A stretch of 64,000 nucleotides of DNA from IMG/VR virus record IMGVR_UViG_3300020388_000009; one strand, 5' to 3'. The notes under the pieces are model-generated. The model was not told the DNA's origin and made no database searches. It worked only from the letters and a program-made list of their open reading frames with translations. Source of the stretch: a virus. Its lineage: Duplodnaviria; Caudoviricetes. The translations under genes and the position numbers were made by a program. Within the stretch, counting starts at the first letter, position 1. The number at the start of each line of letters is the position of its first letter. This document shows, piece by piece, positions 1 to 62,210 of this stretch.

Positions 1-689
1 TTACTTGAACTAGTATATTCTGATATAAATGATCCAGTACTTGACCCAGATGCAAATGTTCTAATAAAAAATGATGCAGTTGCATCAAATTGATGTAATT
101 CATTTCCATGAGCTCCATCTATATGACAACCGCTTTCTGAATTTGCAAATGACCATGATGCTCCGGTATTAAATGATGAACTGTTAATAAATTCCCAATC
201 AACATAACCAGAAGTATTTGCAATTGCAGAAAAACTTAGTTTTGAACCAGTTTGTATAGAATATGAACCAGTTATTATTCCATCTTCACCATCTTCTGCT
301 AAAATTACTACAAAATCTGCAGGGAATGTTACCCTACCAAATATGCTAGCACTGGCTTGTAGATAAGCATTTGAGCTCATTTCATCGGCCATACGTTCAT
401 TTAATTTCGATTTATAATCAGGTGTCGGGACTGGGTCATAAAAAAATGATTGAGAAATACCACCTACGACTACATTTGGTATACGTATTGGTGGGCTAGA
501 TACTCCATCGACTATTGGAGTGTCTTTTCGTTTCATACGTTTATAAAATTTATGTTTTGATCCACGTGGATCTTTTAAAGCAAATGGAACACGCTGCTTA
601 CCGGTAAAAGTACCTTTAATAGTGCCGGCGGCTATAGAAGCACTTAATTCTGCATATGTTTTTACTTCAAATCCTCTAAATTTTGCCAT
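1..689 (-). CDS. Hypothetical virion protein, partial (runs off left edge)
   Basis: Translated by hand: ATG at 689, MAKFRGFEVKTYAELSASIAAG..., open to position 1. Late motif at 716-722. TGS/SAS/SSS-rich like its neighbours. Not in the ORF track. Confidence 0.8.
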   Translation of the reverse strand, partial: MAKFRGFEVKTYAELSASIAAGTIKGTFTGKQRVPFALKDPRGSKHKFYKRMKRKDTPIVDGVSSPPIRIPNVVVGGISQSFFYDPVPTPDYKSKLNERMADEMSSNAYLQASASIFGRVTFPADFVVILAEDGEDGIITGSYSIQTGSKLSFSAIANTSGYVDWEFINSSSFNTGASWSFANSESGCHIDGAHGNELHQFDATASFFIRTFASGSSTGSFISEYTSSS

Positions 690-731
690 AGTACAACTTT
701 TTATTTTATTTATAATAAATATGCAATAATA

Positions 732-1373
732 TCAATAACCCAGGTAAAAATCGCCAGAGGCACTATAAAACATTCCTCCTTCCTGGGCCGTAGGTGTTGT
801 AGAAAATGCTCCTAATACTGTAACTCCTTCTAGATTGATAACAAATTTTGCATCATCCGATCCATGTGATTTTACCAGAAATAAATCTCCAGGAGTACCA
901 TTACCAGTTATGATATTTTTTGATGATGATATTACTGGAGCAAATAACGATTGATTAACATATAAATCATTTGTAGTATCAACTAAAAATGAGTCTTGTC
1001 CTATTATTACCGGACCAGGTGTTTTTATCGATCCAGAATGTAATGTCAATGATCCAGATATTACCGATGGTCCATGCATTAAAACAGAACCAGTAATTGT
1101 CAATGATCCAGATATTACAGCAGAACCGGAAAATGGAAATACGGCGCCTGAGCCTTCTGCAAATGCTAATGCTATCCATGTTGAATCTGAAGTTTCGCTG
1201 CCAGGATTGGTACATGCATAATATCTGTTTTCATCTGATTGGTAAACTAGTAATCCTTCATACAAGTTAAACCATGGTATTGCAAGACGTTCAGTGTTGT
1301 TTGCTACAACCGATCGTGAATCTAAAGGTTCTTGTGTATTTGGATTAAATCCTACTCCAATATTCACTGCCAT
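732..1373 (-). CDS. Putative tail fibre/appendage-associated protein
   Basis: 213 aa. N-terminal PLDSR..ERLAI..YEGLLVY segment resembles phage fibre proteins. ISGS/ITGS beta-repeats. GGAG upstream. Confidence 0.55.
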   Translation of the reverse strand: MAVNIGVGFNPNTQEPLDSRSVVANNTERLAIPWFNLYEGLLVYQSDENRYYACTNPGSETSDSTWIALAFAEGSGAVFPFSGSAVISGSLTITGSVLMHGPSVISGSLTLHSGSIKTPGPVIIGQDSFLVDTTNDLYVNQSLFAPVISSSKNIITGNGTPGDLFLVKSHGSDDAKFVINLEGVTVLGAFSTTPTAQEGGMFYSASGDFYLGY

Positions 1374-1375: not shown

Positions 1376-4300
1376 TTAAAACTCCAATTTATATCTTAAT
1401 GGTATATTTTTCGGTGTCACAGATCTCCATACTTTATATTTAGGTTGACCTGTTACCGGATCAGTACCTACCGTAGTTACATCAAATCCAGAAATTTCTT
1501 CAAATGTAGAATCCACATTTTTAATTGATACCACATTTCCTAACTCTGCATCGTATATTATATATAAATATTCGCCAGTTGCTGCTGGGTTGAATGCAAT
1601 TGTTTTGGATTCTATTTCTGAAATTTCGTTTACTCCGGATTCAATGACACCAGTTGTCCAGTTATCTAATTCTAAAATCTCTTCGTACGAATATGATGAC
1701 ACCATAGTTGATATATATCTTAAACTCCTTACACGTTGCCATGTCACTGAAACTGATCCAGTATGTGTTAAATATTCGCTATTACGTGTACCAGAATTCC
1801 AAAATTGTTGTATTAGTCCGGTAGTTACATCGCCAGTTTGATTAACTGTAACAGAGTCAGAAAAATTATTAAAATGTGGTGTACTACTTAACCAGCCTTC
1901 TCCGGCAGCATCAGTTCCTGGTGTTGTTACCCATGAAATAGTTCCTTCTTCGCCTTCTTCTATTTCTAGTTGATCTGCATCATATGCATTATGTTCTAGA
2001 ACATATGTTAATTGTGTCACGGTTGGATTGGTAGGATCTAGTTTATTTAATTCTAATGGCAATACTGATTCCATATCTCCAAAATTTCCAAACTGATCCA
2101 CATATCTGATTTTAGCTTTAAATGTATGACTGCCGGATTGATAAGATGGATATGTATCATTAATTGTTATATTTTCTCCATCGGTAAATGATGCCACGCC
2201 TACATACACGCCTCCATTTGTAGATGCAGATATATGACCAAATATAAAGGTATTATCATATAAATTATATGATGATTTTAATTGATAATCGTCAATAACA
2301 TTTGTAAATCTATCTGTATCAAAAGTTTCATCTACGAATCGATAGAAATATGGATCAACATTAGACCCAAATGTCAATGTTAATATTCCTCCATCAGTTG
2401 TAACAGATACATCGTTACTATAATCGTTAATAACTAATTGAGTTAAATCGATTAGAGGTGCCGTAGATCCTGTTTGATATTGTACTGAAGTGGATGAACC
2501 ACCTTCTGTATTTATTGAATTAGGATAACTACCAGTATAAAAGAATTTTTTCTGTACTGTATCGTATACTACGACTTTATTTCCAGGTTCATTAGAATGA
2601 GGTACATTATTAAATGCTCCGGAAATTTCCGCGGCGATTTGGGCAGAACCAGATATCAATGTATTGTTTAATTCTGTTTCTGCAATTGTTAATCTAGCTG
2701 ATAATGATTCGCTTACGTTGCTAAATGATCCAGATATATCCGCGGCAATTTGAGCAGAACTAGATATCAATGCATTGCCTAATTCTGTTTCTATTACATT
2801 TAATCTTGATGAAAATGAACCACTATCTGTTTCTAATGAGGTTACTCTTGTACTAAATGAAGAACTTGGAGCAACAAATGCTCCAGTAATTTCTGTGGCA
2901 ATTTGTGCAGATCCGGATATCAATGTTTTGGAAGTACTACCGGCTTCCACAGATGACAGTCTAGAGGATAATGACTCACTTACATTGCTAAATGCTCCAG
3001 AAATTTCTGAAGCTATTTGCATTGAACCAGATATCAATGTATTACCTAATTCTGATTCTATTACATTTAATCTGGATTGCACTGATGAACTTACATCACT
3101 AAATGCTCCAGATATTGCGGTAGCGATTTGAGCAGAACCGGATATCAATGTATTGTTTAATTCTGATTCTATTGTATTTAAACGACTTTGTAAAGAAGAG
3201 CTAGTTTCTGTAAATGCTCCGGATACTGCAGATGCAATTTGAGCTGAACCAGATATCAATGTATTGTTTAATTCTGATTCTATTGTAGTTAATCGAGTTT
3301 GTATAGATGCACTAGTATCTGTAAATGCACCTGATATTTCTGTTGCAATTTGAGCAGAACTGCTCAATGCTCCTTCAAATATTCCGGTAAATGCCGGTGC
3401 TGTAATAGTTCCTTTAGATACAATTATACTACCAGTTGTTAATATAGATCCGGTAAATTGATGAGTAGCTTCTGATGGTATTGAACCTGAACCAAATACA
3501 GTTGAGCCAGAACGAACTGTTATCTGGTCTTCAAATAATTCTACACCGTTAAATACAAGAGATCCAAATAATCGAGTATCATTATTTATTAAAAGCTGTG
3601 ATGCTGTTACGCGCGATGATGATATATTTGCAAACGTTACAGAGGAATCTGTGTTTACGTTCTGATTAATTTGTGATTCTAATGTATTAAATCTAGATTC
3701 TATAGACGAACTTACGTTATTAAATGCCCCAGATATTTCAGATTTAATTTCACCAGAACTTGATATATAATTTAATTCAATTGTAGATAATCGAGTTTGT
3801 ATAGAAGCGCTAGATTTAAAAAATGCTCCGGATATTTCTGTGGCAATTTGTGCAGAGCTAGATATAACTCCTTGACCTTGAAATGCACCAGAAATTGCAG
3901 CAGCAAGTTGTGCAGAGCCAGATATCAATGTTTTGGAAGTACTGCCTGCTTCTACTAATGTTAATCGTGATGATAATGATTCGCTAGCGTTATTAAATGC
4001 TCCAGATATTTCAGATTCAATTTCGCTAGAACTTGATATATAATTTAATTCTATTACATTTAATCTGGATTGTATAGATTCACTGGCGTTGTTAAATGCG
4101 CCTGATATCGCTGTAGCTATTTGTACAGATCCGGATATCAATGTATTGCCTAATTCTGATTCTATTACATTTAATCTGGATTGTATAGATTCGCTGGCGT
4201 TATTAAACGCACCGGAAATTTCTGTAGCAATCTGCACAGAACCGGATATCAATGGTTTGGAAGTGCTACCTGCTTCTACTAATGTTAATCGCGATGATAA

Positions 4301-5044
4301 TGATTCACTTACCGGTTGGAATGCACCAGATATTTCTGAAGCTATTTGAGCAGAACCAGATATCAATGTTTTGGAAGTGCTACCAGCTTCAACAGCTTCT
4401 AAACGAACGCTTATTGATGATGCAGAATCTTGATTTTTTAATATCCTAGATAAATTAGATCGTATTAAATTATCATTAGTACTAGACGAATATTCTAATT
4501 CAACAATTGATGGATGAACCAAAATTGAGCTGGATATATCTGTGGCAATTTGAGCAGAACTACTTAAAGCTCCTTCAAAAATTCCTTTAAATGATGTAGC
4601 CTTTACAGATCCAGAAACATCCAATTTATGATTTGCCTGCGATGTTCCTATTCCTACATTACCAGTATTATAAAATATATCAGCGCCATCTGCACTCCAT
4701 GCTGTCAATGACCGAGCTGCTCTATTTGTGGCAGAGCTAACAACTGTATCATTTATAACAATATTATCAGTTATTTCAATAATGTTTGGTTGAGAAATTT
4801 CTTGAGTAACTATCTGATTGTTTTCAGGGGATGAAATTTCTACGGTAACATTTGCATCTTCCGATAATGCGATATTATTTGTAGTGACAACTGTTTGGAT
4901 GTTAGTATCATCTGATTCTTGGCTAGAATCAGTAACAGTTATAGATCCTTGAGTGCTTAAATCTACTACTTCAATTATGTAGACATCAACATCTTGTATA
5001 TCAACTGAAAATTTTTCTTCTTTAACATCTATGTTAATTGCCAT
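1376..5044 (-). CDS. Long repetitive fibre protein (coiled-coil-like shaft)
   Basis: 1222 aa. 14 copies of an ISGSAQIA.EISGAF-type repeat, a GNVGIGT..P/A..KLDV fibre motif and an SGST.FG....THQFTGS module. Confidence 0.7.
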   Translation of the reverse strand: MAINIDVKEEKFSVDIQDVDVYIIEVVDLSTQGSITVTDSSQESDDTNIQTVVTTNNIALSEDANVTVEISSPENNQIVTQEISQPNIIEITDNIVINDTVVSSATNRAARSLTAWSADGADIFYNTGNVGIGTSQANHKLDVSGSVKATSFKGIFEGALSSSAQIATDISSSILVHPSIVELEYSSSTNDNLIRSNLSRILKNQDSASSISVRLEAVEAGSTSKTLISGSAQIASEISGAFQPVSESLSSRLTLVEAGSTSKPLISGSVQIATEISGAFNNASESIQSRLNVIESELGNTLISGSVQIATAISGAFNNASESIQSRLNVIELNYISSSSEIESEISGAFNNASESLSSRLTLVEAGSTSKTLISGSAQLAAAISGAFQGQGVISSSAQIATEISGAFFKSSASIQTRLSTIELNYISSSGEIKSEISGAFNNVSSSIESRFNTLESQINQNVNTDSSVTFANISSSRVTASQLLINNDTRLFGSLVFNGVELFEDQITVRSGSTVFGSGSIPSEATHQFTGSILTTGSIIVSKGTITAPAFTGIFEGALSSSAQIATEISGAFTDTSASIQTRLTTIESELNNTLISGSAQIASAVSGAFTETSSSLQSRLNTIESELNNTLISGSAQIATAISGAFSDVSSSVQSRLNVIESELGNTLISGSMQIASEISGAFSNVSESLSSRLSSVEAGSTSKTLISGSAQIATEITGAFVAPSSSFSTRVTSLETDSGSFSSRLNVIETELGNALISSSAQIAADISGSFSNVSESLSARLTIAETELNNTLISGSAQIAAEISGAFNNVPHSNEPGNKVVVYDTVQKKFFYTGSYPNSINTEGGSSTSVQYQTGSTAPLIDLTQLVINDYSNDVSVTTDGGILTLTFGSNVDPYFYRFVDETFDTDRFTNVIDDYQLKSSYNLYDNTFIFGHISASTNGGVYVGVASFTDGENITINDTYPSYQSGSHTFKAKIRYVDQFGNFGDMESVLPLELNKLDPTNPTVTQLTYVLEHNAYDADQLEIEEGEEGTISWVTTPGTDAAGEGWLSSTPHFNNFSDSVTVNQTGDVTTGLIQQFWNSGTRNSEYLTHTGSVSVTWQRVRSLRYISTMVSSYSYEEILELDNWTTGVIESGVNEISEIESKTIAFNPAATGEYLYIIYDAELGNVVSIKNVDSTFEEISGFDVTTVGTDPVTGQPKYKVWRSVTPKNIPLRYKLEF
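2600..4420. repeat. Degenerate intragenic tandem repeats, mostly ~99-114 bp (33-38 aa), in two blocks of seven
   Basis: Recurring DNA such as aatgctccagatatt, gcagaaccagatatcaatgt and tctattacatttaatctgga. The blocks at ~2600-3370 and ~3660-4420 flank a non-repetitive module. Confidence 0.85.
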
Positions 5045-5427: not shown

Positions 5428-5490
5428 AATATTTCCTTTATTTTATATAAATATTGGAACAATATGATACAATGAGATTTTAGTTGTGGA

Positions 5491-6302: not shown

Positions 6303-7859
6303 CTATACTGCTTCTATTGTTACATACCCGCCATAAACTTCTTCACCAGAAGCTTGGGCTAATTCTAATAATAAATAATTTGTTGTGCTACTAGTTACAT
6401 CGGTAATATCCAATTCAGTTCCTATATTTCCAGTACCTTTACTAGTTACTGTTTTGCTATTGATATTCATTTCAGATACTTCTAATGCCGATGTACCACT
6501 TCCGTAAATATGTACATGTGTTGCTTTAAATCCTGTTGGTATTGGTATAGAAGCAAATAATTTAGCTGTACCATGAGATTCTAACCACCTGTCACTACCG
6601 GAATCATCAATCATTGCTGGTCTACCAATATCATCTGGTATAAAATCACTTACCAAGATTTTAATTCTTGTAATCGATCCATGCCATCCTGCTAAAATAG
6701 TACCAGTGGCACTTATGGTTTGCCCCGCATGTAAAGCTCCATTTGTTGATAAAGTAGTACCACTACTATGTTGTAAATAAGCGCCTGATGATGCATCTAA
6801 ATAGAGTCTATCAGCTGTTAAATACCCACTTGCACTTATATGACCTGATGCTGTAATAGCTGTTTGAACATTAAAAGATGTACCTGTAAATATACTATCT
6901 CTATTTGCTCTACCAAATGTTAATTTATTAGCATTTGTAATATCATAATCAACTACATCAGTATCAGCAACAGTAATAGCTTTTGCTACATTTAAATTTC
7001 CATACATATGAATATCAGCGTCATTTTCTACTCTTAAAGATGCTGAATTACCTGCCGCTAAGTATAATTGTCTATTGTTACCGCTAGCCGATCCTGTCAT
7101 ACCAATAATCATTGAATTTCCTTTGGTACCTGTTAAAGTATGACCTGATGGCCATTGGTCGTCATCTCCTGATATACCTATTTGTCCTGATATACCACCG
7201 TTATCTTGTTTTAAATGAATATAAGGATTTGCGGCTTCGTTATCATTTCCTGAATCTGCTTCTAGAGTTAATACTGCATCACCATCTGATCCAGATTTAA
7301 TTATTGTGACATTGCCACCAAATACATGATTAAGACCACTTGCACTTATATTACCAGAGGCTGTTATATGAGAAGTTACTTTTAAATTACCTTCAACTTT
7401 CACATTGTTCACACTTTGATCAGATACAGTTAATATATCTGTATCATCTGGAGCAATAATAATGGTATTACTGGTTTGATAAATTCTATCATCATTAGCT
7501 CCAAAATGAATCGTTGGATCGCCACCGGCACCATGTAGGTTTAAATGTGCACCAAAAATATTATTACTTGCACTTATAAGGCCTGTAACTCTCATATCTC
7601 CTGTAAACTGGTGTGTATCATCTGATGAATCACCAAATGCGGTTGAACCTGAAAGTGTTTGAGTTGTTATATTGCTAACTGATGAACAAACAATATAATT
7701 TTCTGCTGTTATACTATCAACTCGAAAATCACTTGAAACTGCAGATCCAGAACCATAATAAAATTTTCCAGTATCCAAATTAATCGCTAATTCACCATCT
7801 GCTAAACTGCTTGGAACTGCGGAACCGGTTCCTCTTCTTATTTGTATTGTTTGTGCCAT
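6303..7859 (-). CDS. Tail fibre/spike with Mtd-N-like N-terminal anchor domain
   Basis: 518 aa. MAQTIQIRRG...PSSLADGELAINLDTGKFYYG resembles the major-tropism-determinant/hyaluronidase-type N-terminal domain. ITASG.ISAS repeats. Confidence 0.65.
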   Translation of the reverse strand: MAQTIQIRRGTGSAVPSSLADGELAINLDTGKFYYGSGSAVSSDFRVDSITAENYIVCSSVSNITTQTLSGSTAFGDSSDDTHQFTGDMRVTGLISASNNIFGAHLNLHGAGGDPTIHFGANDDRIYQTSNTIIIAPDDTDILTVSDQSVNNVKVEGNLKVTSHITASGNISASGLNHVFGGNVTIIKSGSDGDAVLTLEADSGNDNEAANPYIHLKQDNGGISGQIGISGDDDQWPSGHTLTGTKGNSMIIGMTGSASGNNRQLYLAAGNSASLRVENDADIHMYGNLNVAKAITVADTDVVDYDITNANKLTFGRANRDSIFTGTSFNVQTAITASGHISASGYLTADRLYLDASSGAYLQHSSGTTLSTNGALHAGQTISATGTILAGWHGSITRIKILVSDFIPDDIGRPAMIDDSGSDRWLESHGTAKLFASIPIPTGFKATHVHIYGSGTSALEVSEMNINSKTVTSKGTGNIGTELDITDVTSSTTNYLLLELAQASGEEVYGGYVTIEAV

Positions 7860-7899: not shown

Positions 7900-8700
7900 T
7901 TAAATGCTGAATGCCGAACTGTCGATAAAGTCGTCTGGTGGAAATCGAAAATTATAAATAGTTTCTGTCACTTTTATTTGATACCCCTGACCCGGAAAAA
8001 GGTTTCCAATACCATTAAAGGTATACTCTGGCCAATATACATCAGCAGTATTATTTTTCACAATCTGAATTTTATGTGTTATATCTTGTTCAATACCATT
8101 TACAGTCCCGTTAGCAAATGCATCTATCGCATTTTGGGGAGTTCTTCTGTTAAACCCAATTATATTCCAACCTTCTAAAATATTTATATATCCATGTTCA
8201 TATAAACTAGTATGCCATAACAATTGCCGGTTTTCAACTACCTGCTCATTAATTGCTAAATTTGCTCCAAATAATGGAATAGTAAATTCAATTGCTTCCC
8301 TCATCTTTATTTGATATCCTTGACCAGGAAGGAAATCTCCAATTCCATTAAACCCAAATTCCGGCCAGTATACTTGTGCAGCATTGTTTTTAGTAATTTC
8401 TATATTATCTTCAATTTCTGCAAATGTAGCTTGTATATCCTGAGCATATGGTAATACTGATCCTATCATATTCCAACCTTTAAGAAAATTATATGTAACG
8501 TATTGTGCTGCGCCAGGAGATGTGGCATCAATTCCAATAACCTCTTCTATTTCTTGCTCAGGAACTGGTTGAAATGTTGATTGTAATTCATCTGAGTCTG
8601 CCACATCTATTATACCAGCGATATCACGCGTGTAAACAGTGTCAAGTCGATGTTCGGGTGCTAATGTCGATGCAGATCCAGAAATTTGTGATATACTCAT
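7900..8700 (-). CDS. Protein with a tandem-duplicated GWN(M/I)IG...YWPE..FNGIG...PGQGYQIK domain
   Basis: 266 aa. Two clear copies of a ~65-aa domain, which I recall from secreted proteins of marine Bacteroidota (not verified). Confidence 0.6.
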   Translation of the reverse strand: MSISQISGSASTLAPEHRLDTVYTRDIAGIIDVADSDELQSTFQPVPEQEIEEVIGIDATSPGAAQYVTYNFLKGWNMIGSVLPYAQDIQATFAEIEDNIEITKNNAAQVYWPEFGFNGIGDFLPGQGYQIKMREAIEFTIPLFGANLAINEQVVENRQLLWHTSLYEHGYINILEGWNIIGFNRRTPQNAIDAFANGTVNGIEQDITHKIQIVKNNTADVYWPEYTFNGIGNLFPGQGYQIKVTETIYNFRFPPDDFIDSSAFSI

Positions 8701-24654: not shown

Positions 24655-24672
24655 TTTATATAAATATGCTCA

Positions 24673-34940: not shown

Positions 34941-34962
34941 AATTTACCTATATAAATAAATA

Positions 34963-40912: not shown

Positions 40913-41965
40913 TTAGAAAGAACCACCATCAATACTTCCGCTAGCATTACTTATGGTACCATTAACTGTTAAATTACCATCATTATCTAAATGCAATAAT
41001 TCCACTCCCGGATTAATGCCGGCAAGTCCTGTATCTTTAAATACTCTGAATGCGGAATTCTCATGAGAATTTGCGTTATCCATTAATATATCAAAACCAC
41101 CATTTGTTTTTATATAAGGAGAATTTGGTAAAGGTTGTCCATATGTTATAGGCGAGCCGCCATGTATGGATATACCCGATCCAGTTGTTGAATTTGATAC
41201 ATTTACAGCGTAAAATCCATCTACAACTCTTTGAAAGGATGAAGAACTTGGTAGATCAAATTCTAATGCATCTTTCTTATTATCAAGTAAACTTATTCGA
41301 GCAGTGGCACTACCAGTATCAGGTGTACCTTCTGATGCAAGACCCCTTAATGCTCCAGAACCACTCACACGTACACAATATGAAATTGATGAGCCAGACA
41401 TATGACTAAAATTGATATCATCAGCAATTGGTGCACCGGTAATTGAATTGATAATATGTAGATATGTATTAAATCCGGAGCCAGATGCTAAATTTTGACC
41501 TTGTCCAAATGATGTTGTAAAAAATCCTGATGCGGAAATTGATAATCGATTTGTTGTAAATGAATGTGCGCGCAATGCAGCAATGGTACGTTTAGTTATC
41601 ACAGATCCAGAAATTCCCATTGGTAATACAACTCGCACTGCAGAGCCAGAAACTGTATTATTTTTAACGTTCGGTGTATCTCGTAATCCAAAAATACTAC
41701 CGGTAGGTTCAACACTTGTACGATTTGAATTCTGATAAAACACTTTGAAAGAATGGACATCTGGAGTTCTGAAATACCAAAATGATGCTGTTGCCGCCGC
41801 GGGAGCTAACACGCTTTGAGATAACGATGCCCCAGACATGGTTACCACGTAATGTTGTGCCACAGAATTTATACTTTGTGATACACCTATCGTTGTTGAA
41901 CCAGATGGTATAAAGAATAGTTTACCATCTATAGCTTGTATTGCATCTTTTGATAATTGTCCCAT
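40913..41965 (-). CDS. Hypothetical virion/fibre protein
   Basis: 350 aa, about 13 [ST][GAS]S motifs, ends IDGGSF. Confidence 0.65.
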   Translation of the reverse strand: MGQLSKDAIQAIDGKLFFIPSGSTTIGVSQSINSVAQHYVVTMSGASLSQSVLAPAAATASFWYFRTPDVHSFKVFYQNSNRTSVEPTGSIFGLRDTPNVKNNTVSGSAVRVVLPMGISGSVITKRTIAALRAHSFTTNRLSISASGFFTTSFGQGQNLASGSGFNTYLHIINSITGAPIADDINFSHMSGSSISYCVRVSGSGALRGLASEGTPDTGSATARISLLDNKKDALEFDLPSSSSFQRVVDGFYAVNVSNSTTGSGISIHGGSPITYGQPLPNSPYIKTNGGFDILMDNANSHENSAFRVFKDTGLAGINPGVELLHLDNDGNLTVNGTISNASGSIDGGSF

Positions 41966-52452: not shown

Positions 52453-54150
52453 TTAGTAGTCCCAACGAACGATAAAATTCATATCAATATCATCACGTTT
52501 TTGCACCGGTTGAGCTAATTTTGAAACTGCTAATAATTGAGCTTTATCATTATATAATCCAATTGTAGTAATATATGGATTAACTTGTTTTGATGTAAAC
52601 ATAGTTTTACGTGTATCTCCTGGTAATGCATGCCCTTCTTCTGTTTGAGATAAAATTTTATTTGTAGCAGGCGTGAATGTGGCAGTAGGATTCATCGAAA
52701 CATTGAATTGATCTTTTGGTACACGTACTAGTACTTCATTTTCATATATAGTATGAGTACCTTTATATGAAACATTAAATGTATTACCGAAACCACCGGA
52801 TCCGGTATTATATTTTGACATAGGCGATGAAATTACCATTTCGCCATTACGGTAAAATACATTACCCGCTACATTTGTTTGAAATAATGAACCAGATAAA
52901 TAATGACGATTTGATAGTGAATTAATTTCTGTATTGGATACCGCATAATCATACATACGAATTTCTGCTATATAATTATCATTTGTTATACTTTGACTTC
53001 CAGAAATAAAATTACCTATTATAATATCATCATTATTTGATGTTACACCTATAGGTAATGATCCTGATGTAGTACCTGCAGAATTTCCATTAACAAACAT
53101 TTGACATAATGAAGCTGAATTACGTATACATACATGCTGCCATTCTAAATTCGATGATATATAATTTGCAGCTGATGATGATATATGAAGTTCACGCGTA
53201 CCATCAGATGCATGAAAATGAACAGAGCCTGATAGTCCATTACCTGCAGGCCTAGCAACACCAATTACAAATGGTGTACGTATGTTAGAGTAAGATGATG
53301 TAATACTTGGCATATTAACCGTCTTATCGCGATATTTAGTTAAACTATTTCTTTTATCAATATAAAGTTGTTTACGTACACCACCTTTTGATATAATAGG
53401 TCTATTTTTGACTACTGAATTATATATCCAGAATGATATAGACCAATCATCGTAATAATTAAATTTATTAAATGTTTCCTCATGAGGAACACGTATAAAC
53501 GTTTTATTATTAGTTTTAAATGAATTACCAGAAGTTTGAGTTACACCACCGGTCATATTTATACCAATACCATCTTCTTCTTTAAAATTGCTAGTTTTAT
53601 ATTGTTTTTGTACCGGGCCTTTATTACCAAATTCTTTATTAAATGACATATGAAAAATATTACGGCTAGATGATGCAAAACTAGCTGTTGATATTATGGT
53701 ATCACGTAAATTACCGTAACCATCATCTTGTAATGTATATGAATGTCCATTAGTAAATGTTCCTGTAACTGTACCCGGTTTAATACGTTCACCTACTTCT
53801 AAATATGGCGCAACTAAACATGATGCTGATTCATATAAATGTTTTTCCGTAACAGTTGCGTTAGTTAATTCATTAGATTTAACTGGGTTATACGGATCTC
53901 CATAATACCTATGATCTAAACTATGCCAAATCACATGTTGATTTGTACCATCTAATGAATTGACTGGAAAGGTTTCTGCTGCATGTCCTATATTAATTGG
54001 TAATTTACGATATATACCATTATGATGAACATATCCAGATGATGTAGTAAATGCAGTGCTAGTTATTCGATATGTTTTATATGATTTAAATGCTCGTCGC
54101 TGAAAATCATTTGATCGTATTGGTCTGAAAACACTTGGAATAACTGGCAT
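52453..54150 (-). CDS. Baseplate/tail protein with LamG (concanavalin A-like) domain
   Basis: WSISFWI...WQHVCI....MFVNG...IAEIRMYD.A.S..EI pattern. C-terminal YITTIGLYN....LLAVSKL. Confidence 0.75.
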   Translation of the reverse strand: MPVIPSVFRPIRSNDFQRRAFKSYKTYRITSTAFTTSSGYVHHNGIYRKLPINIGHAAETFPVNSLDGTNQHVIWHSLDHRYYGDPYNPVKSNELTNATVTEKHLYESASCLVAPYLEVGERIKPGTVTGTFTNGHSYTLQDDGYGNLRDTIISTASFASSSRNIFHMSFNKEFGNKGPVQKQYKTSNFKEEDGIGINMTGGVTQTSGNSFKTNNKTFIRVPHEETFNKFNYYDDWSISFWIYNSVVKNRPIISKGGVRKQLYIDKRNSLTKYRDKTVNMPSITSSYSNIRTPFVIGVARPAGNGLSGSVHFHASDGTRELHISSSAANYISSNLEWQHVCIRNSASLCQMFVNGNSAGTTSGSLPIGVTSNNDDIIIGNFISGSQSITNDNYIAEIRMYDYAVSNTEINSLSNRHYLSGSLFQTNVAGNVFYRNGEMVISSPMSKYNTGSGGFGNTFNVSYKGTHTIYENEVLVRVPKDQFNVSMNPTATFTPATNKILSQTEEGHALPGDTRKTMFTSKQVNPYITTIGLYNDKAQLLAVSKLAQPVQKRDDIDMNFIVRWDY

Positions 54151-54168: not shown

Positions 54169-55506
54169 TTAAAAATCTAATTTTACTTTTATTAACGCTT
54201 CTCTAGTGTAATTTTTCAATAAAGGCTGACTTAATTTAGCGATTGCTAATAACTCTCGTCTATCATTATATAATCCAACTGATGTAATAAAAGTTTGAGG
54301 ATCATTTTTAAATGAATTAAAAGATAATTGACCTAATGATCCAGTAACAAAAGAAGGATTATTGGAATAATTAAATTCAGCATTTTTAGCTCTAACAAAG
54401 TAATATGTTGATTTAACTGCTTCCGCGGAACGAGCCTGAATACCACCAGTAATAGATCCGCCTACTACTCCAGCTGAACTAGAAATTGATGTAAATAATT
54501 TTACAGCATTTTCACCTTGTATTTGAGAACCAGTAACAGTATGGAAATTAACTCCTCCAGATGCATGTACTTTATCTAATTGTCGAGCATCTAATATTGC
54601 AACACCATGTTGTGGATATAATAATCCGTAATTTACAGTATCACCGCTATTTAAATACATACCTGCTCCATCTAATGAACCAGATACTATATTATAAACT
54701 TGACCTGATTCTCCTAAAGTAGCAGATGTTAATGACGAATCATCAATTAATTGTATATATAAATCTTTACCAGCTATTTTTACATGAGATCCAGTATGAG
54801 CAGCATTTGGTACCGATGGTCCTAATGAACCAGATAATTGAGCTAATGTTATTTCAAAATTTCCTGGATCTACTTTTTCTCGCATACGTGCGCGGTTAAA
54901 ATTTAATACATAAATTGAATCTGTATCTGATCCATTAATGGTAAACTTTTTATCATCTGGCCCTAATAATACTTGAGCATATTGTTTATAAATTGCTCTA
55001 GATGGTGTATCATTATTTAAACTACCTGCAGCATCTTTAGACCCAGAACCATTAAAATGTCCATATGCTAAAGATAATTCTACATTTGCAGAAGAATTAG
55101 AAGCAGGATCTCCGGTACTATAAATTTCCTGATAATATGTTTTTTGAATATCTGTTAAATTTGAAGATGTAAACATACTTGTTAAACTTGCAACATTACC
55201 AGCAAATAATCCACGCGTTACAGTTTCAACATTATTAGCTAATACATCATCAACAACATCAAACCGAGTATATATTTTTCCTAATCTAGATGTACGAGCT
55301 TCGGCTTCGCGTTGTGCTATTATTTCATCAGCTAATTCCTGCGCACGTTCTTCTATCGATATACTACTTATTCGAGTAGGAACCGGTGCCTTTTGACGTT
55401 GACGGGTAGGTTCTGGTGAAGTAGCTCGTACCGGAGTTGCTTGCCGAGGTGCTTTATTTGCAGCACGCGCACCTCTAAAATTTGATCTATAAGTTCGTCT
55501 AGCCAT
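54169..55506 (-). CDS. Baseplate/tail structural protein
   Basis: 445 aa. C-terminal FITSVGLYN...ELLAIAKLSQP is paralogous to the downstream gene. Arg-rich N-terminal tail. Confidence 0.7.
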   Translation of the reverse strand: MARRTYRSNFRGARAANKAPRQATPVRATSPEPTRQRQKAPVPTRISSISIEERAQELADEIIAQREAEARTSRLGKIYTRFDVVDDVLANNVETVTRGLFAGNVASLTSMFTSSNLTDIQKTYYQEIYSTGDPASNSSANVELSLAYGHFNGSGSKDAAGSLNNDTPSRAIYKQYAQVLLGPDDKKFTINGSDTDSIYVLNFNRARMREKVDPGNFEITLAQLSGSLGPSVPNAAHTGSHVKIAGKDLYIQLIDDSSLTSATLGESGQVYNIVSGSLDGAGMYLNSGDTVNYGLLYPQHGVAILDARQLDKVHASGGVNFHTVTGSQIQGENAVKLFTSISSSAGVVGGSITGGIQARSAEAVKSTYYFVRAKNAEFNYSNNPSFVTGSLGQLSFNSFKNDPQTFITSVGLYNDRRELLAIAKLSQPLLKNYTREALIKVKLDF

Positions 55507-56250: not shown

Positions 56251-59200
56251 TTACTCTACACGTAATGTTCCTACACCATCTGGTGGTGGCGTTTCATTAT
56301 AAATTAATTGATTAGGATTAACAGAATACACTTCAATAATTGGTTTAAAATCTAATTGAGGATATATTGATGCTTGGTTAATTCCTGGTCCGGTTATTTT
56401 ACTACCTGCATATTTTTGATTTTCTGGCATTATGAAAACATCATCGCGATATGTTCCTGCCGCAGATGATCTGCTAAAATATTGTCCTACCGATGCACTT
56501 TCAGGTGAACTATAAAAAAATGTTTCAGTTGTGTATATATCACTAGTCCTAGAATTTAAAACAAATCCTTCATTAACAGACCCGGTATGGCTACCAGTTT
56601 GTGAAACTTGTACATTTATTAAATAATTGCTATCAACATAACCATTCGACGCTGTTTGATATATCGATATTCCAGATATTATACTTTCATCAAATGATAT
56701 AGAAGCTTCATAATTAATACTTTCTGCGCTTGAGCTAGGTATTTGTTCTGGTATTAATGCATCATACTGTGGATTGGTAAATTCTGGTTGTCTTACTAAT
56801 CTAACTTTTGCTCTTTCAATTGCATGTGGTTCTACTAATAATCCCATGGCTTCATCTGCTCGTTCTGGTAATAATTGTTTCATTTGATCGAATAAAGCAA
56901 AATCAAATTGACTGAAAATTCTTATAAAAGCATTAACATCATTTCTATCAGTATATTTTTTCCAGTATTCTTTTGAAAAAGAATCTAAATCAGGATAATC
57001 AATTTTAAATTGGTCTTCTGGATTTCCTATAAAATTATCAACATCAACATCACCAGTTTGATTAAAAATATCTTTATTAATTTGATCTGCCATGGAATAG
57101 AATAAACCTATACGGTTTGTATCAATTGGAGCTCTATCAAATCTAGAACGTTCTGCATTTTGTACCGGTGATAAATTATTAATTAATTGGTTATCTTCTA
57201 AACGTATTTTTTGTGATCTAGGTAAACTACCACCGATTGATACACCTTGTATATAATACGTTTCATTAACTGGTACAAAGTTACCACGTATTTCACTGAC
57301 AGGAGTTTGGAATCCGCTAGCGGATGCATATGTATTATTTTGATCTGTAAATGGTGGTGAAAAATCTTGTATTGCTTGATTTGGATGACTCGATGTAAAT
57401 CGATAATTACTAGGAGCTCCAGAACAATCGAATGTTTTTAAATCTGTACCAAAAGGATAATGTCGTATCAATGTATCAAATGATGAAGTAGGAGAAATGC
57501 TAGACACATACGAAGTTGGATTAAATGTATGTAAATCAAAACTAACATCATTTACCACCTCGAGCCAACTTCGGTATTCTTGCATAGAACCAGTAAATGT
57601 ACCAGGAAATATATTTGAATATCTATCATTATTTGTTATAGGATTTCCATTATAAATACTAGCACTATTAATAGGAGCTCCAAATGAAGCTGATAAAGTA
57701 GCTTTAACTGCATACGTATCAATGCCATTAATTTCTCCTCCTAACCGTAATATATGAGAATTTGTTCCATCTGAAGCTGATGCCCACATTTGATGTGTAT
57801 CTACTGATGGTGTTAAATTAATACTAGCTGAATGTACAATTTTATTTGTAATATAATCAGATGCTTGCTGACATCTAACAGTATATGTAGTATCGGTATT
57901 TGAACTAGTATTATATGTATCAATTCCAACACTTAAATTCCAAAGATTACCATCATATACTGGAAAGTAATTTGTCATTGATGCGGATGCTTTACCAGCA
58001 CCAGTCGGCATTACAAAATGTAGTCTTCCATATTTATCACTTCCAGAATATGAACTAGTATATTGCAGCGCTATAGCCCATGATTGAATCGAATCATTAA
58101 TACGATTACTCATTAAAGCCATATTCTGTTTTTTATCTGGACGGAATCTTAATTCATGAGTTAATATTGGAATTTCACCTCTATCAATTCCCCATGTTCC
58201 GATACTACTTGAAACCCAATTATTAGGAATTTCTAAATGTGCATCAGAATCAAAATGTAATGCATATACAAAACGATCTTCGATAATTGCCGGTACATCA
58301 TCTGCAACTTTAGGACCTCCATATTCTCTTATAGAAAGTAAAGTCTGCGGGATACCATATATATTTAATAAAGCTTTTAAAGACCTTGTAGTACCTTTAG
58401 TTTTAAGTATATACGGTAAATTATTAACTATTCTACGCCAAATATCAGTTGTAATTATTTCATCTGATTTAGAAAATAATGATCCAGTACTAGCAAATTG
58501 TCCAGAACCAGATGATACACCTAATTTATACTGCCATAATGCTGAAGCTTGATTACCATCTGATAAATTCCATCCTAATGATTTCGCAACTTGATATAAT
58601 ACATGTTTATTTTGCCCTAATTCTGGATGTTCTTCTGGTTTATATATTTTTGATAAATTATTAATATATGAATATATAATATCATAATGATGTCCTATCA
58701 TATTAACAAATAATTCATATTGAGAATTATTTTCATCTCGCCGTATATGTTCTGGTATTGTTTTTTGTAACGAATTATTATTCTCTGAATCGTATAATGA
58801 AGCTGTAGCAGATACATTTGTATACCAATTGGTTGCCAATGGTGAAGTTGTAGTATGCAAAACATATTTACCATCAGATATATATTTAGGCCATGATGGA
58901 ATACGATATAATTGTGATCCTATACGCCCACCTTCTATTTCATATTCTTCCGATTCATACATTGTTTGATGCGTAAATAAACTAGACGTTGGTTCATGGT
59001 ATAACCATCGTTCGAAACCATCAAATGATCCTATAACATCATTTTTTCTATTAGTATTTATAGCCACATTATTTTGCAATGCAGAAATATCCGATCCAGA
59101 AGTATCGTTTAATATACTAATACGATTATCATAATATTCAATTAATTCTAATTTATATTTAAAATTTGCAACACGTTCTTTAGCAGATGAAAACTGTATA

Positions 59201-59967
59201 AAATTATTAAGTCCGGAATAATCTATCCCTAATTTTACACCTGATAAAGATCCGGAAAACATTTTATCAATAATATTTTGAGATGTAGCTGTATTTGCAT
59301 TTAATAATGAATTCCATGATTCAAAATCTGTTTCTGTAATAGTACCATATGACGTTTCAATATTAAAGTTTGGTCCAAGTAATTCTGTATATGAATCAAA
59401 ACCTTTATCTTCTGAACTTATAGTTATAGTATCATTAAATGTATCTGCAATTTCATCGACAATCCAAGCAGATTGGCCTTCTTCAATGTCTGCCGGTAAC
59501 GGTTCTAATAATCGTATTATTAATTCATCATCAATTACTATTTGATTAATAATTTTTACAAGTTGATCATCACCAAAATTTAATACGGGTTCTGCATCGA
59601 CAGTTAAATTATCAACAAATTCTTGTAACATTCCGTCATGATTTTCAGGATCATCAACTACCACATGTTCAAGTTTTAATTCACGGCGATCTGGAGATAT
59701 CTCTTTAAGGAATATCATTGGGAAATCTACAGAGCCTAATAATGGATTATATATGTTTATATTAACATCAAATTTTCCTCGACGAATATTAAAAGAATTT
59801 AAAACTGCATTATGATTTACAAGAAGTGTTGATGTATCAAATAAATGATTTTCAATAACACCGCCTACAATATACCGAGGAGAATCTCCTGGTGTATAAT
59901 AATGACATTCAACTATGCCATCTTTAATTAAAACATCTTCTATATTATTTATGATATTTTTTGCCAT
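56251..59967 (-). CDS. Baseplate wedge-like protein (gp7/P2 I-like motif)
   Basis: 1238 aa. WRRIVNNLPYILKTKGT.RSLKALL.IYG motif and position next to the gp6-like gene. Confidence 0.65.
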   Translation of the reverse strand: MAKNIINNIEDVLIKDGIVECHYYTPGDSPRYIVGGVIENHLFDTSTLLVNHNAVLNSFNIRRGKFDVNINIYNPLLGSVDFPMIFLKEISPDRRELKLEHVVVDDPENHDGMLQEFVDNLTVDAEPVLNFGDDQLVKIINQIVIDDELIIRLLEPLPADIEEGQSAWIVDEIADTFNDTITISSEDKGFDSYTELLGPNFNIETSYGTITETDFESWNSLLNANTATSQNIIDKMFSGSLSGVKLGIDYSGLNNFIQFSSAKERVANFKYKLELIEYYDNRISILNDTSGSDISALQNNVAINTNRKNDVIGSFDGFERWLYHEPTSSLFTHQTMYESEEYEIEGGRIGSQLYRIPSWPKYISDGKYVLHTTTSPLATNWYTNVSATASLYDSENNNSLQKTIPEHIRRDENNSQYELFVNMIGHHYDIIYSYINNLSKIYKPEEHPELGQNKHVLYQVAKSLGWNLSDGNQASALWQYKLGVSSGSGQFASTGSLFSKSDEIITTDIWRRIVNNLPYILKTKGTTRSLKALLNIYGIPQTLLSIREYGGPKVADDVPAIIEDRFVYALHFDSDAHLEIPNNWVSSSIGTWGIDRGEIPILTHELRFRPDKKQNMALMSNRINDSIQSWAIALQYTSSYSGSDKYGRLHFVMPTGAGKASASMTNYFPVYDGNLWNLSVGIDTYNTSSNTDTTYTVRCQQASDYITNKIVHSASINLTPSVDTHQMWASASDGTNSHILRLGGEINGIDTYAVKATLSASFGAPINSASIYNGNPITNNDRYSNIFPGTFTGSMQEYRSWLEVVNDVSFDLHTFNPTSYVSSISPTSSFDTLIRHYPFGTDLKTFDCSGAPSNYRFTSSHPNQAIQDFSPPFTDQNNTYASASGFQTPVSEIRGNFVPVNETYYIQGVSIGGSLPRSQKIRLEDNQLINNLSPVQNAERSRFDRAPIDTNRIGLFYSMADQINKDIFNQTGDVDVDNFIGNPEDQFKIDYPDLDSFSKEYWKKYTDRNDVNAFIRIFSQFDFALFDQMKQLLPERADEAMGLLVEPHAIERAKVRLVRQPEFTNPQYDALIPEQIPSSSAESINYEASISFDESIISGISIYQTASNGYVDSNYLINVQVSQTGSHTGSVNEGFVLNSRTSDIYTTETFFYSSPESASVGQYFSRSSAAGTYRDDVFIMPENQKYAGSKITGPGINQASIYPQLDFKPIIEVYSVNPNQLIYNETPPPDGVGTLRVE

Positions 59968-61071
59968 TTATCTTCCTAATCGTCTCACGTTTCGAACTTG
60001 AGATACTACACGTTCCGGTAAATTATTACGATCTATGAGTACTGATCTTCTTACATTAGGTTCAGATTGTTGACTAGAATTATTTGATACTAAATCATTC
60101 CAACCAGCATACTCATCATAATACAACTCAGATCCTTCCGGTTCATATGGCTGCATATATTCTAAATCAAATACTTCATTGTTTGTTGTATTAATATATC
60201 GTTGATATCTAGCAACTTGTACATAATCTGTATTACTTATACCACGACGACCTCCTTCATCATATTCATAATGATTGAAATCATTCCAAACTGGCGAACT
60301 TAATCCATCATCTTGTAAATTAGTAATCACCCCTTCATCGATCATTACATTTAATATTGAATTATCATCATACCAGTCTGCTGTTGCATCATAATCTAAT
60401 CCTAAACCATTAATATGATTATAATATTCTAATGTGGTTGACTCTGGAAAAGGCCGCCCGTTCTGTGTAGTTGCATATGCAATAGATCTCCATTCACCGT
60501 AAATCATCATTCTTACAGATTCTACTATAATATCAGCATTAAAATCATTTAATACAATCATTTCGCCTTCATATTGCGCACGAAGTTTTTCTAAATATGT
60601 TTGTTTCTGATATACTTGTTCATCATAATCATTACCATCAATATAATCTCCTGGATCTCTAAAGAATGGAAAAGCCGGCTTATAACCAGATTCAAAACGA
60701 ATAACATTATTATATTCTGATAACCGGGATGCCAATTCATTTAAATCATCATATATAAATTCATCTATATTTGTTTGAATACGTATTGCATTATATGTTA
60801 GTCCACGTTCTACTAACATTACCTCTAACGTTTTATAATCAGGAATTAGTATAGGTTCTATATTACCAGACTTTAAAGCAATCTGAACTTCATTATTAAT
60901 TAATGCATCATGGAAATCGCCAGATAATTTTACATCAGAAATAAATTCATCTGTACTTATATCGGTACCGACTCCAACTATAGTATCAAAAAATTCAAAC
61001 TCTGAATCTAACTTACCTTGTATGCGAGTCTGTACTAATTTATATTCTCTATATTTCGATCGATCTATCAT
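59968..61071 (-). CDS. Hypothetical acidic baseplate-region protein
   Basis: 367 aa, translationally coupled to its neighbours. Confidence 0.7.
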   Translation of the reverse strand: MIDRSKYREYKLVQTRIQGKLDSEFEFFDTIVGVGTDISTDEFISDVKLSGDFHDALINNEVQIALKSGNIEPILIPDYKTLEVMLVERGLTYNAIRIQTNIDEFIYDDLNELASRLSEYNNVIRFESGYKPAFPFFRDPGDYIDGNDYDEQVYQKQTYLEKLRAQYEGEMIVLNDFNADIIVESVRMMIYGEWRSIAYATTQNGRPFPESTTLEYYNHINGLGLDYDATADWYDDNSILNVMIDEGVITNLQDDGLSSPVWNDFNHYEYDEGGRRGISNTDYVQVARYQRYINTTNNEVFDLEYMQPYEPEGSELYYDEYAGWNDLVSNNSSQQSEPNVRRSVLIDRNNLPERVVSQVRNVRRLGR

Positions 61072-62210
61072 TAATTAATAACCTTAAAATAAAAATCGTC
61101 AAATACTTGTATATCATCGCCGCCATCTCTTTCAATCTTTAATTCTATTTGATAATATCGTTCTGGCATAAATGAATCCATTCTTAATTTAAAGAAACTA
61201 CCATTTACATCACAGTCAATTTTAGTTCCTAATACATCATATGAAATAATAGTTTCTTTAGTCTCAGTATCTAAAATTTTATAAAATGATGATGTAGGTA
61301 ATCGTTCTCCAGTTAAATAATATGAGGATGTTACATATGTCTTTGATGGAAATTCTGGACGTACGCCTAATCTAAACTTCGCTATTTCTGATGTTTTATA
61401 TTCTGATTTTATATTTTTAAAATATGGAACATATGAGTCGGATGTGATTTGAGCAGAAGATGTATTTGTAAATAATGTATTATCCCATATTACTTCTAAT
61501 CTTGGTACAAAAATAGTATGCGATTCTCTACCAAAAAATTTAATTGAACCTAACACATCACCAGATAATTCATCATCCTTTGTACGTTTAATTATAAATC
61601 CATGATTAGAAATATTACCTTTAACCCAATTATTTACTATATCAGTTACATCCATACGTATATCAGGTATCTGATTTTCAAATGATTGAGATGCTTCATA
61701 TAATGAACCGGTAATCCATGTACCACCACCTAAATGTTTTTCAGTAGCTGATGGTTGCCAATTATATTGAGCAGACCCCGTTCTCCAATATGTTGCTTGA
61801 TCTTTTGAGTTTCGATAATACCATGATGCACCATTTGTTGTTTTAGGAGTATCATTTTTATATCCATTTCCATTTTCCCATGATTGTGATATTGGAAATG
61901 CTTGTAAATTATATGTTTGTAACAAATCAGAAGCATCTGACGATCTTAAAGATAGATATATAGAAGCAGATGTATTACCGGTACCAATTGGTGGAATTTT
62001 CCCATTAGTAACAGCTGTGGTTAAATTAGTAATTTCCGAACCAAAATCGATTAATATTCTAGAATTATATGTCTTGTTACGAATCTTACCTTCAATTTTA
62101 GAACCAGATACATTTTTTGTTAATTCTAAAATTTGGTCAATACCAGAATTTTGTTCTGGGTACCGTTCGTATAAAGTCGCATCCTTTTCTGCATAAAATA
62201 TTCTATACAT
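61071..62210 (-). CDS. Virion protein with DNRLRE/CBM96-like fold
   Basis: KDATLYE..P..NSG.D.IL...SRILIDF...SWE.G.G....W...MDVTDIV..W......NHGFII....F..RE.....P.LEV pattern. Confidence 0.6.
   Translation of the reverse strand: MYRIFYAEKDATLYERYPEQNSGIDQILELTKNVSGSKIEGKIRNKTYNSRILIDFGSEITNLTTAVTNGKIPPIGTGNTSASIYLSLRSSDASDLLQTYNLQAFPISQSWENGNGYKNDTPKTTNGASWYYRNSKDQATYWRTGSAQYNWQPSATEKHLGGGTWITGSLYEASQSFENQIPDIRMDVTDIVNNWVKGNISNHGFIIKRTKDDELSGDVLGSIKFFGRESHTIFVPRLEVIWDNTLFTNTSSAQITSDSYVPYFKNIKSEYKTSEIAKFRLGVRPEFPSKTYVTSSYYLTGERLPTSSFYKILDTETKETIISYDVLGTKIDCDVNGSFFKLRMDSFMPERYYQIELKIERDGGDDIQVFDDFYFKVIN

Follow-up and report, generated by a model that had tools for sequence, protein, structure and literature searches.

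A conserved serine-ending tripeptide marks the outer tail proteins of a Far-T4 phage subgroup and co-occurs with a flagellin-type glycosyltransferase

Results

A Far-T4 virion module and its motif-rich proteins

We analyzed a stretch of 64,000 nucleotides (hereafter the window) from a tailed virus, IMG/VR record IMGVR_UViG_3300020388_000009. Our subject is a tripeptide, [S/T]-[G/A]-S (hereafter the tag), that recurs throughout the tail, baseplate and fibre proteins encoded there and that an initial annotation, made from the window alone and in the wider form [ST][GAS]S, had proposed as an acceptor sequence (sequon) for dense glycosylation or another modification of the virion surface. All genes of the window are on the minus strand. 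Portal and terminase are of the T4 type (Pfam Portal_T4, Terminase_6N), and the major capsid protein (MCP) is 57% identical to the capsids of immuto and Mel-JY01, 51% to that of LR756508.1, an uncultured jumbo phage of 484 kb, and 36% to its counterpart in Rhodothermus phage RM378. In trees of MCP, the large terminase (TerL) and portal, the window clusters with immuto, Mel-JY01, LR756508.1, RM378 and two complete environmental genomes, G001 and G002 (support 100/99 for MCP, 99/99 for TerL, which is strong, and 94/95 for portal), and T4, the cyanophage S-SSM6b and the Xanthomonas phage XacN1 stand apart. The trees thus place the window phage within the Far-T4 group, for which RM378, long the sole cultivated member, is the cultivated reference (PMC4360716, Roux et al. 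2015). Many marine metagenome contigs, one of them 176 kb long, bear proteins identical to those of the window.

Fourteen proteins of the window are rich in the tag. They are given below with coordinates, strand and product, followed by observed versus expected copies of the core motif [ST][GA]S.

3..689, minus strand, C-terminal 229 residues of a 511-residue virion protein, cut by the window edge; 7 versus 1.5
732..1373, minus strand, 213-residue protein with a hexad-like SGS/TGS run; 6 versus 1.2
1376..5044, minus strand, 1222-residue fibre-like protein with 21-residue repeats; 25 versus 9.1
6303..7859, minus strand, 518-residue motif-rich protein; 13 versus 2.6, z 6.7
8700..12461, minus strand, 1253-residue motif-rich protein; 26 versus 7.5, z 7.4
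12715..21450, minus strand, 2911-residue giant motif-rich protein; 64 versus 14.8, z 12.7
21450..21935, minus strand, 161-residue protein homologous (BLAST) to the N-terminus of the 2911-residue protein; 5 versus 0.8
21935..23767, minus strand, 610-residue fibre-like repeat protein; 29 versus 6.2, z 10.5
40913..41965, minus strand, 350-residue motif-rich protein; 12 versus 2.5
42826..47814, minus strand, 1662-residue fibre/spike protein; 16 versus 6.1
52453..54150, minus strand, 565-residue LamG-domain baseplate/fibre protein (Laminin_G_3, E=6e-8); 8 versus 1.6
54169..55506, minus strand, 445-residue conserved baseplate protein; 6 versus 1.7
56251..59967, minus strand, 1238-residue baseplate protein; 17 versus 3.4, z 8.0
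61071..62210, minus strand, 379-residue baseplate protein, its gene next downstream of that for the gp6-like wedge; 4 versus 0.9

The following genes served as controls or anchored the annotation.

26336..28072, minus strand, major capsid protein, control, not enriched; 3 copies of [ST][GAS]S versus 2.1 expected
33054..36540, minus strand, portal and large terminase (Portal_T4, Terminase_6N), controls; 0 motifs
62220..63941, minus strand, gp6-like baseplate wedge subunit (phrog_219, E=3e-23), annotation anchor, not enriched; 1 motif versus 0.9

The tripeptide excess is real and restricted to outer virion proteins

The core motif occurs 238 times in the 14 proteins (11,756 residues), about 4.5 times chance. 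Its expectation was 53 when each protein was shuffled as a whole, and 60 or 64 when shuffling was confined to blocks of 20 or 10 residues (z 24 and 22), for an overall z of 22-26; the wider form [ST][GAS]S gave z 3.8-11.7 across the 14 proteins by whole-protein shuffle. The enrichment noticed by eye therefore survives global as well as local shuffling. The hand counts of the initial annotation for [ST][GAS]S also hold on recount (7, 12 and 8 in the 213-, 565- and 445-residue proteins, and 14 in the 350-residue protein, which had been put at about 13), as do its low counts elsewhere (0 in terminase and portal, 1 in a 1050-residue Mre11/Rad50-like protein). Its extension to the capsid is unsupported, as the three copies in that protein, read as a likely surface-exposed group, are at chance. 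In the remaining 29 window proteins the core motif is likewise at chance (13 versus 10.3), and the excess is also absent from ligase, ClpP, MoxR, the glycosyltransferase (GT) enzymes and a secretion-tagged protein elsewhere in the genome. The excess is real, and it is restricted to outer tail, baseplate and fibre proteins.

Four tripeptides carry the signal at 3.5-5 times expectation, namely SGS (81 observed, 16.5 expected), SAS (72, 14.5), TGS (51, 12.0) and TAS (36, 10.4), while SSS and TSS reach merely 1.7-1.9 times; when all 8000 tripeptides are ranked by enrichment, SGS, SAS and TGS take the first three places. Order matters: S[GA]S stands at 4.9 times and T[GA]S at 3.9 times expectation, versus 1.10 for S[GA]T and 1.00 for T[GA]T, in agreement with the asymmetry first seen in the 350-, 565- and 445-residue proteins, which hold 1, 3 and 1 copies of [ST][GAS]T. 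S[GA]Q is enriched too, threefold. Neither N-x-S/T nor the known Bacteroidota sequon, D-(S/T)-(A/I/L/V/M/T), is enriched in the 14 proteins, the latter being depleted (38 versus 53.5 expected, ratio 0.71).

Two properties of these proteins could by themselves generate such counts. The proteins are rich in serine (10-17%), and the 610- and 1222-residue proteins have in common tandem 21-residue repeats (approximately SASESFSTRVTLTEATASTLT) that inflate both of their motif counts. With these two internally repetitive proteins removed, 184 copies remain versus 39.7 expected (z 22.8). The 238 copies span 121 different 9-mers and the codons of the position-3 serine follow the background, in keeping with the earlier remark that mixed serine codons speak against a DNA repeat. 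BLAST relates only three pairs among the motif proteins, so that the tag does occur, as first proposed, in mostly non-homologous proteins. We thus rule out composition or low complexity (by the local shuffles), a DNA repeat or codon cause (by the 9-mers and codons) and paralogy (by the three related pairs). At position 1, T- or C-ending codons are favoured over A-ending ones (TCT+TCC make up 56% of position-1 serines versus 31% in the background), possibly a codon-pair effect ahead of GGN or GCN.

Distribution across genomes

Genome-wide ratios of observed to expected [ST][GA]S separate two sets of phages: 2.14 in immuto, 2.33 in Mel-JY01, 2.37 in RM378, 1.97 in G001 and 2.11 in G002, versus 0.81 in T4, 1.24 in S-SSM6b, 1.11 in XacN1, 1.43 in TJE1, 1.16 in S-CBS4 and 1.36 in LR756508.1, where no protein has a z above 2.4. 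With the window phage, the excess is seen in six Far-T4 genomes. In the five genomes with the excess, S[GA]T lags far behind (0.86-0.91 in G001 and G002, 1.08 in RM378, 1.37 in Mel-JY01 and 1.54 in immuto). A generic property of fibres was considered and rejected, the fibres and baseplates of T4, S-SSM6b and XacN1 being at chance. XacN1 (AP018399.1, loci L101-L119) has another excess, of TPT (306 versus 36) and PTP (159 versus 22), which presumably stems from Thr-Pro-rich repeats in the linkers of certain large proteins.

The tag tracks a small glycosyltransferase

A glycosyltransferase cassette is common to immuto, Mel-JY01 and RM378. It consists of GT-B1 (about 480 residues), a second large open reading frame (ORF), GT-B2, and a small GT2 (about 210 residues, with a DxD motif). 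GT-B2 is not detectable by BLAST in RM378, which carries two tandem divergent copies of the small GT2 (loci L036-L042), and Mel-JY01 has its GT-B1 ortholog in two pieces, ORFs of 190 and 302 residues (PP395634.1 83441-84932, L021). The small GT2 is present in all five compared enriched genomes and in none of the six non-enriched ones; a profile search of LR756508.1, XacN1, S-SSM6b and T4 did not find it, LR756508.1 having GT-B1 only. GT-B1 alone was accordingly rejected as the correlate, since LR756508.1 has GT-B1 but not the motif. A search of 50,697 phage records placed the small GT2 in immuto, Mel-JY01 and RM378 and nowhere else, and across 80 environmental loci the three cassette genes are linked in 79-80. 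Covariation with glycosyltransferases among relatives, which the initial annotation had suggested looking for, is therefore found, and it is the small GT2 that the motif tracks.

In the TerL and portal trees RM378, with both tag and enzyme, branches outside LR756508.1, which has neither and is sister to the other carriers. On this branching tag and enzyme would have changed together at least twice, which is suggestive but thin. A search for further genomes within the clade that lack the small GT2 gave only fragments 45-69% complete, and IMG/VR contigs with the 350-residue family are at most 43 kb long, so that linkage of family and enzyme lies beyond their reach.

A sugar island in the genome of the window phage

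If the link between tag and enzyme is real, the genome of the window should encode the small GT2. We walked outward from the window by exact-protein look-ups, with consecutive loci overlapping at 99.6-100% nucleotide identity, and found the small GT2, as predicted, on overlapping contigs. It lies in an 18-kb island of co-oriented genes situated 45-63 kb beyond window coordinate 64000, in the following order.

Island gene 1, GT-B1, 485 residues, 50% identical to immuto
Island gene 2, GT-B2, adjacent to GT-B1, 440 residues, 46% identical to immuto
Island gene 3, ORF of 159 residues between GT-B2 and the small GT2
Island gene 4, small GT2 (L241:5437-6069), 210 residues, 48% identical to immuto, profile E=8e-53
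After the small GT2, in order, two unnamed genes; FAD and Gfo/Idh/MocA oxidoreductases; DegT aminotransferase; methyltransferase
Island end, in order, three more GT2-type genes; two epimerase/dehydratases; UDP-sugar dehydrogenase

The earlier statement that no modifying enzyme lies in the window is correct for the window but does not extend to the genome, where the search recommended at that time now yields GT-B1, GT-B2, the small GT2 and the three further GT2 genes.

The window has 10 copies, versus 0.8 expected, of a promoter-like element, ATATTTATWWWAA, similar to a T4 late-promoter analogue; all are on the coding strand and in short gaps just upstream of genes.

ATATTTATWWWAA sites, minus strand: 710-722, 5442-5454, 7872-7884, 24655-24667, 25363-25375, 33014-33026, 38425-38437, 40895-40907, 52439-52451, 56213-56225

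The 75 kb walked contain 12 more copies, of which one heads the island and none lies inside it; the island therefore looks like one operon. The element also heads seven or more virion genes, but it precedes small non-structural ORFs too and is therefore not late-specific, so that a "late" promoter for the island is only partly supported.

Three other genes met on the walk concern the virion or the host. A 684-residue protein beside a MoxR-like ATPase (L232:1379-3433; 5 versus 0.8) and a 564-residue protein (L238:4984-6678; 7 versus 2.3) are motif-enriched; both are unannotated, lie outside the main structural module and may belong to the virion as well. The phage also encodes, about 38-48 kb past window coordinate 64000, a 981-residue protein with a type IX secretion system (T9SS) C-terminal sorting domain (Por_Secre_tail; L234:635-3580) and zero [ST][GA]S motifs. 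The sorting domain points to a Bacteroidota host and to export by the host T9SS. The cultured relatives have Flavobacterium and Rhodothermus as hosts, and the host phylum of the window phage is probably Bacteroidota.

Anatomy, placement and conservation of the tag

The tag has preferred flanks, I, V or H right before it and I, F, V, L or A right after it, and the five-residue form [ILVFH][ST][GA]S[ILVFA] is found 50 times versus 4.5 expected. In an AlphaFold model of the 445-residue protein (mean predicted local distance difference test score, pLDDT, 77, with the core above 90), the six core sites and one SGQ site all lie at beta-strand ends or in loops, and none is mid-helix or mid-strand. 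Compared with solved folds, this model has no clear neighbour by Foldseek (best E 0.07) or VIA-align (best Z 3.7). The model of the 350-residue protein (pLDDT 53.5) was left unused. A single beta-repeat fold, one way in which the motif might have been explained away, does not account for it, given its presence in mostly unrelated proteins and at the strand ends and loops of the 445-residue model.

Conservation was followed in an alignment of 33 homologs of the 350-residue protein (46-95% identity). At 7 of the 12 sites the motif is retained in at least 30 of the 33, and the third serine never varies at eight motif sites and reaches at least 90% conservation at two others. Position-3 serines are kept in 91% of homologs, versus 56% for other serines in the 350-residue family and 52% in the 445-residue family (p=2e-4 and 0.012), and are almost never swapped for threonine. 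Motif positions 1 and 2 show a similar pattern, the motif residues exceeding other Ser, Thr, Gly and Ala. Over longer distances the sites turn over at maintained density: orthologs of the 1238-residue protein hold 17 motifs in the window, 13 in Mel-JY01, 8 in immuto and 4 in LR756508.1, and the first three have only 2-7 sites in common even with a tolerance of 6 columns. At shared columns the LR756508.1 ortholog has generic turn residues (NGD, NQD), for example FNGDI in place of the FTGSM or LSGSI of the others, so that the fold can do without the tag. The LR756508.1 ortholog of the 379-residue protein has zero motifs. These alignments argue that selection acts on the tag itself.

What the enzymes resemble

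Searched against the PDB, the small GT2 profile has as its best solved full-length relative the flagellin beta-O-GlcNAc transferase GmaR, in the chain of 22ao (E=6.8e-13, profile 3-202 to chain 11-190). The two have the motifs DxD (IDADE), RIYKN, HE and LYH in common, and D93, D95 and E96 of the small GT2, invariant in 17 sequences, align with IDADE of GmaR. Other PDB matches of the profile are the peptide glycosyltransferase SunS and GalT1, an enzyme of the Fap1 serine-rich-repeat adhesin pathway. GmaR links its sugar to Ser/Thr, and we know of no consensus sequon for it. Its N-terminal ~180 residues carry out transfer of N-acetylglucosamine (GlcNAc) to Listeria monocytogenes flagellin, within a protein of 637 residues that also has TPR, linker and anti-repressor domains, the TPR being proposed to bind the protein substrate (PMC9638930). 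The likeness is thus to a cytoplasmic enzyme that places a sugar on a surface-filament protein, flagellin, before assembly (PMC9638930). In contrast to GmaR, which acts on one substrate, the phage enzyme stands beside two GT-B proteins and would serve many unrelated virion proteins by way of a short tag. We regard the small GT2 as a putative GmaR-type GT-A protein O-glycosyltransferase, homologous by profile and predicted to transfer sugar.

For GT-B1 and GT-B2 the best solved relative is the chlorovirus glycosyltransferase B736L (PDB 3oy2; E=4e-14 and 1e-5), and both also match phrog_2170. B736L is likewise virus-encoded, but it belongs to a eukaryotic algal virus and the similarity is confined to the C-terminal nucleotide-sugar-binding half; we know of no established acceptor for it. 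The adjacent related pair found here (485 and 440 residues) is reminiscent of GtfA/GtfB, also an adjacent GT-B pair, which glycosylate serine-rich-repeat adhesins. Together with Aah and TibC, which heptosylate the passenger domains of the autotransporters AIDA-I and TibA, these enzymes perform dense cytoplasmic O-glycosylation of serine in beta-rich surface adhesins, and what Aah reportedly recognises is a short element of strand, loop and strand. Among the PDB profile matches there was no GtfA/GtfB (at E<=0.01) and no heptosyltransferase, and distant GT-B relatives can escape a sequence search. The acceptors of GtfA/GtfB are long Ser-rich dipeptide repeats, whereas here tripeptides lie tens of residues apart in non-repetitive proteins. 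The general O-glycosylation of Bacteroidota probably has the host phylum in common with our phage, but its sequon is depleted here; it acts in the periplasm, and virions assemble in the cytoplasm.

A precedent for phage-encoded modification comes from mycobacteriophages, whose own enzymes act in the cytoplasm to glycosylate the proteins of their virions (Freeman et al. 2023, Cell Host Microbe 31:1216, as related in PMC12619734); according to the same account, these siphoviruses bear the glycans on the C-terminal ends of their capsid and tail-tube subunits (PMC12619734). The window phage carries glycosyltransferase genes as well, but its tripeptides are discrete and scattered through folded myovirus baseplate and fibre proteins, its capsid is at chance and its host belongs to another phylum. 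The literature searched gave no virion proteomic or glycan data for this Far-T4 clade.

Phage glycosyltransferases often modify DNA. Such a role is unlikely for these enzymes. By liquid chromatography-mass spectrometry the DNA of immuto has canonical dA, dC and dT, its dG is fully replaced by fdPreQ1, and no glycosylated nucleoside is reported (PMC10516641). A thymidylate-synthase-family gene is found in one of the five carriers, immuto only.

Individual proteins and neighbouring genes

Several of the motif-rich proteins have features of their own. The 511-residue protein, recovered at full length from the 176-kb contig, has 16 motifs versus 2.9 (z 8.0). In the 213-residue protein the motif recurs every 6-7 residues; with a weak match to the FapA beta-solenoid, the protein is probably beta-solenoid-like. 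The 21-residue periodicity seen in both repeat proteins would fit a trimeric coiled coil. Residues 1-39 of the 518-residue protein weakly match the N-terminal domain of Bordetella phage Mtd, the major tropism determinant (E=2.8e-4, under the Pfam cut-off). Directly after the gene of the 1662-residue fibre, a separate ORF of 166 residues (42322-42822, minus strand) encodes an endosialidase-chaperone (Peptidase_S74) domain, which as a rule forms the C-terminus of the fibre protein and cleaves itself off. Adjoining the 350-residue gene, an 812-residue protein (38445-40883, minus strand) ends in DUF6267 (E=4.5e-96), and its N-terminal region bears a weak likeness to a cytidylyltransferase PHROG (E=2e-5). 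For the 213-, 350- and 565-residue proteins, searches of solved structures by sequence gave no credible relative, the sole match (E=0.08) being at chance level.

Discussion

The tag described here is a selected, lineage-specific mark of the outward-facing tail, baseplate and fibre proteins in a Far-T4 subgroup, tied to a flagellin-type glycosyltransferase. As to what it does, we lean towards the reading that it would be the acceptor sequon for phage-encoded O-glycosylation of tail proteins. The sequon first proposed from the window has thus gained from the shuffles, the unrelated proteins that bear it, the covariation with a glycosyltransferase, the presence of that enzyme in the phage's own genome and the homology to GmaR; it has lost the capsid, which is at chance, and it has to be weighed against a possible structural role.

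Under the O-glycosylation reading, the small GT-A enzyme (210 residues, DxD, GmaR-like) would add the first sugar to a tag hydroxyl, and would do so in the cytoplasm, during folding and assembly of the virion proteins. Building and extending the glycan, an amino-, methyl- or uronic-sugar, would then fall to the two adjacent GT-B enzymes, the other GT2 enzymes and the enzymes of nucleotide-sugar synthesis in the 18-kb operon (DegT aminotransferase, methyltransferase, oxidoreductases, epimerase/dehydratases and UDP-sugar dehydrogenase). We are evenly divided on the general proposition that a three-residue sequon, present in hundreds of copies across the folded proteins of the outer tail, baseplate and fibres, guides a stripped-down flagellin-type glycosyltransferase in dense O-glycosylation, and that such a system is standard equipment of an abundant group of marine and freshwater Far-T4 phages of Bacteroidota.

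Several observations weigh against sugar on the tag, whose attachment we infer from sequence. The association amounts to about two independent evolutionary events, the trait's first appearance and the condition seen in LR756508.1, and three further genomes at least 90% complete all carry the enzyme and add no negative case. At 210 residues the small GT2 is a catalytic domain only, without the TPR domain through which GmaR has been proposed to recognise its substrate. In RM378 (NC_004735.1) the top tripeptides are TLS, TFS and TVS (T-[L/F/V]-S), above SGS, the excess of the tag being real there nonetheless, and its small GT2 copies show no more than 25-28% identity; the T-hydrophobic-S form may be a variant tag. 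As ATATTTATWWWAA also occurs before non-structural genes, late co-expression of the island is at most a possibility.

The remaining points against it are those that would also fit a structural idiom, in which the tripeptide is this lineage's favoured tight turn or short beta-strand cap and the link to the glycosyltransferase a by-product of shared ancestry. We consider this unlikely, though it is the strongest of the alternatives. Hydrophobic flanks (I/V/H before, I/F/V/L/A after), the strand-end and loop sites of the 445-residue model, the hexad-like run of the 213-residue protein and the strong positional conservation inside close families are what such an idiom would show, and two sites of the 445-residue family (GSGS, VSGS), conserved in every ortholog, the motif-poor LR756508.1 included, may indeed be structural; yet LR756508.1 orthologs keep the fold although different turn residues occupy those columns, the fibres and baseplates of T4, the cyanophage and XacN1 are without the excess, and the tag sits in proteins without detectable homology, a LamG domain among them. 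Nor would a turn or cap readily exclude threonine at position 3 and accept it at position 1, or have its sites turn over at maintained density, and the coincidence with a GmaR-like enzyme would be left without a reason.

It is improbable that something other than a glycosyltransferase reads the tag, whether as a site of phosphorylation or acylation, as a chaperone or protease site, or as a hydroxyl array binding host polysaccharide, with the island altering, for example, the host surface. Selection and restriction to outer virion proteins are silent on what the reader is, and the window does contain an S74-type chaperone ORF; in the genomes compared, however, neither a kinase nor an acyltransferase nor any other candidate co-varies with it, and the sole enzyme that does is homologous to a protein O-glycosyltransferase. 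An island of this size could make a free or lipid-linked glycan, against which stands the lack of any glycan export or polymerisation Pfam among its called genes, several of which are without any Pfam match. Least of all do we credit an artefact of composition, low complexity, internal repeats, paralogy or DNA repeat, which the serine-rich and tandemly repetitive proteins might suggest and which has next to no probability left after the 10-residue block shuffles (z 22), the removal of the two repeat proteins, the 121 9-mers with background codon use at position 3, the merely three related protein pairs and the reverse-order tripeptide at chance.

To our knowledge, phage-encoded virion glycosylation has been shown only for a few mycobacteriophages, and we know of no acceptor sequon for it. 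If the O-glycosylation reading is true, a tripeptide sequon scattered over myovirus baseplates and fibres would be a new variant of phage virion glycosylation and the first sequon, or substrate rule, for GmaR-type protein O-glycosyltransferases. It would also explain the large sugar islands of abundant marine phages without DNA glycosylation. The tail glycosylation sites of a phage would become readable directly from sequence, the first map of a phage "sugar coat" to be drawn in that way, and thousands of environmental genomes could be compared for how large the glycan coat is and where it lies. The glycan would presumably serve in shielding, stability or adhesion, and the cultured phages, Flavobacterium phage immuto and RM378, would allow tests of the role of the coat in protection from proteases or host defences, in particle stability, and in adhesion to polysaccharide-rich marine particles or host surfaces.

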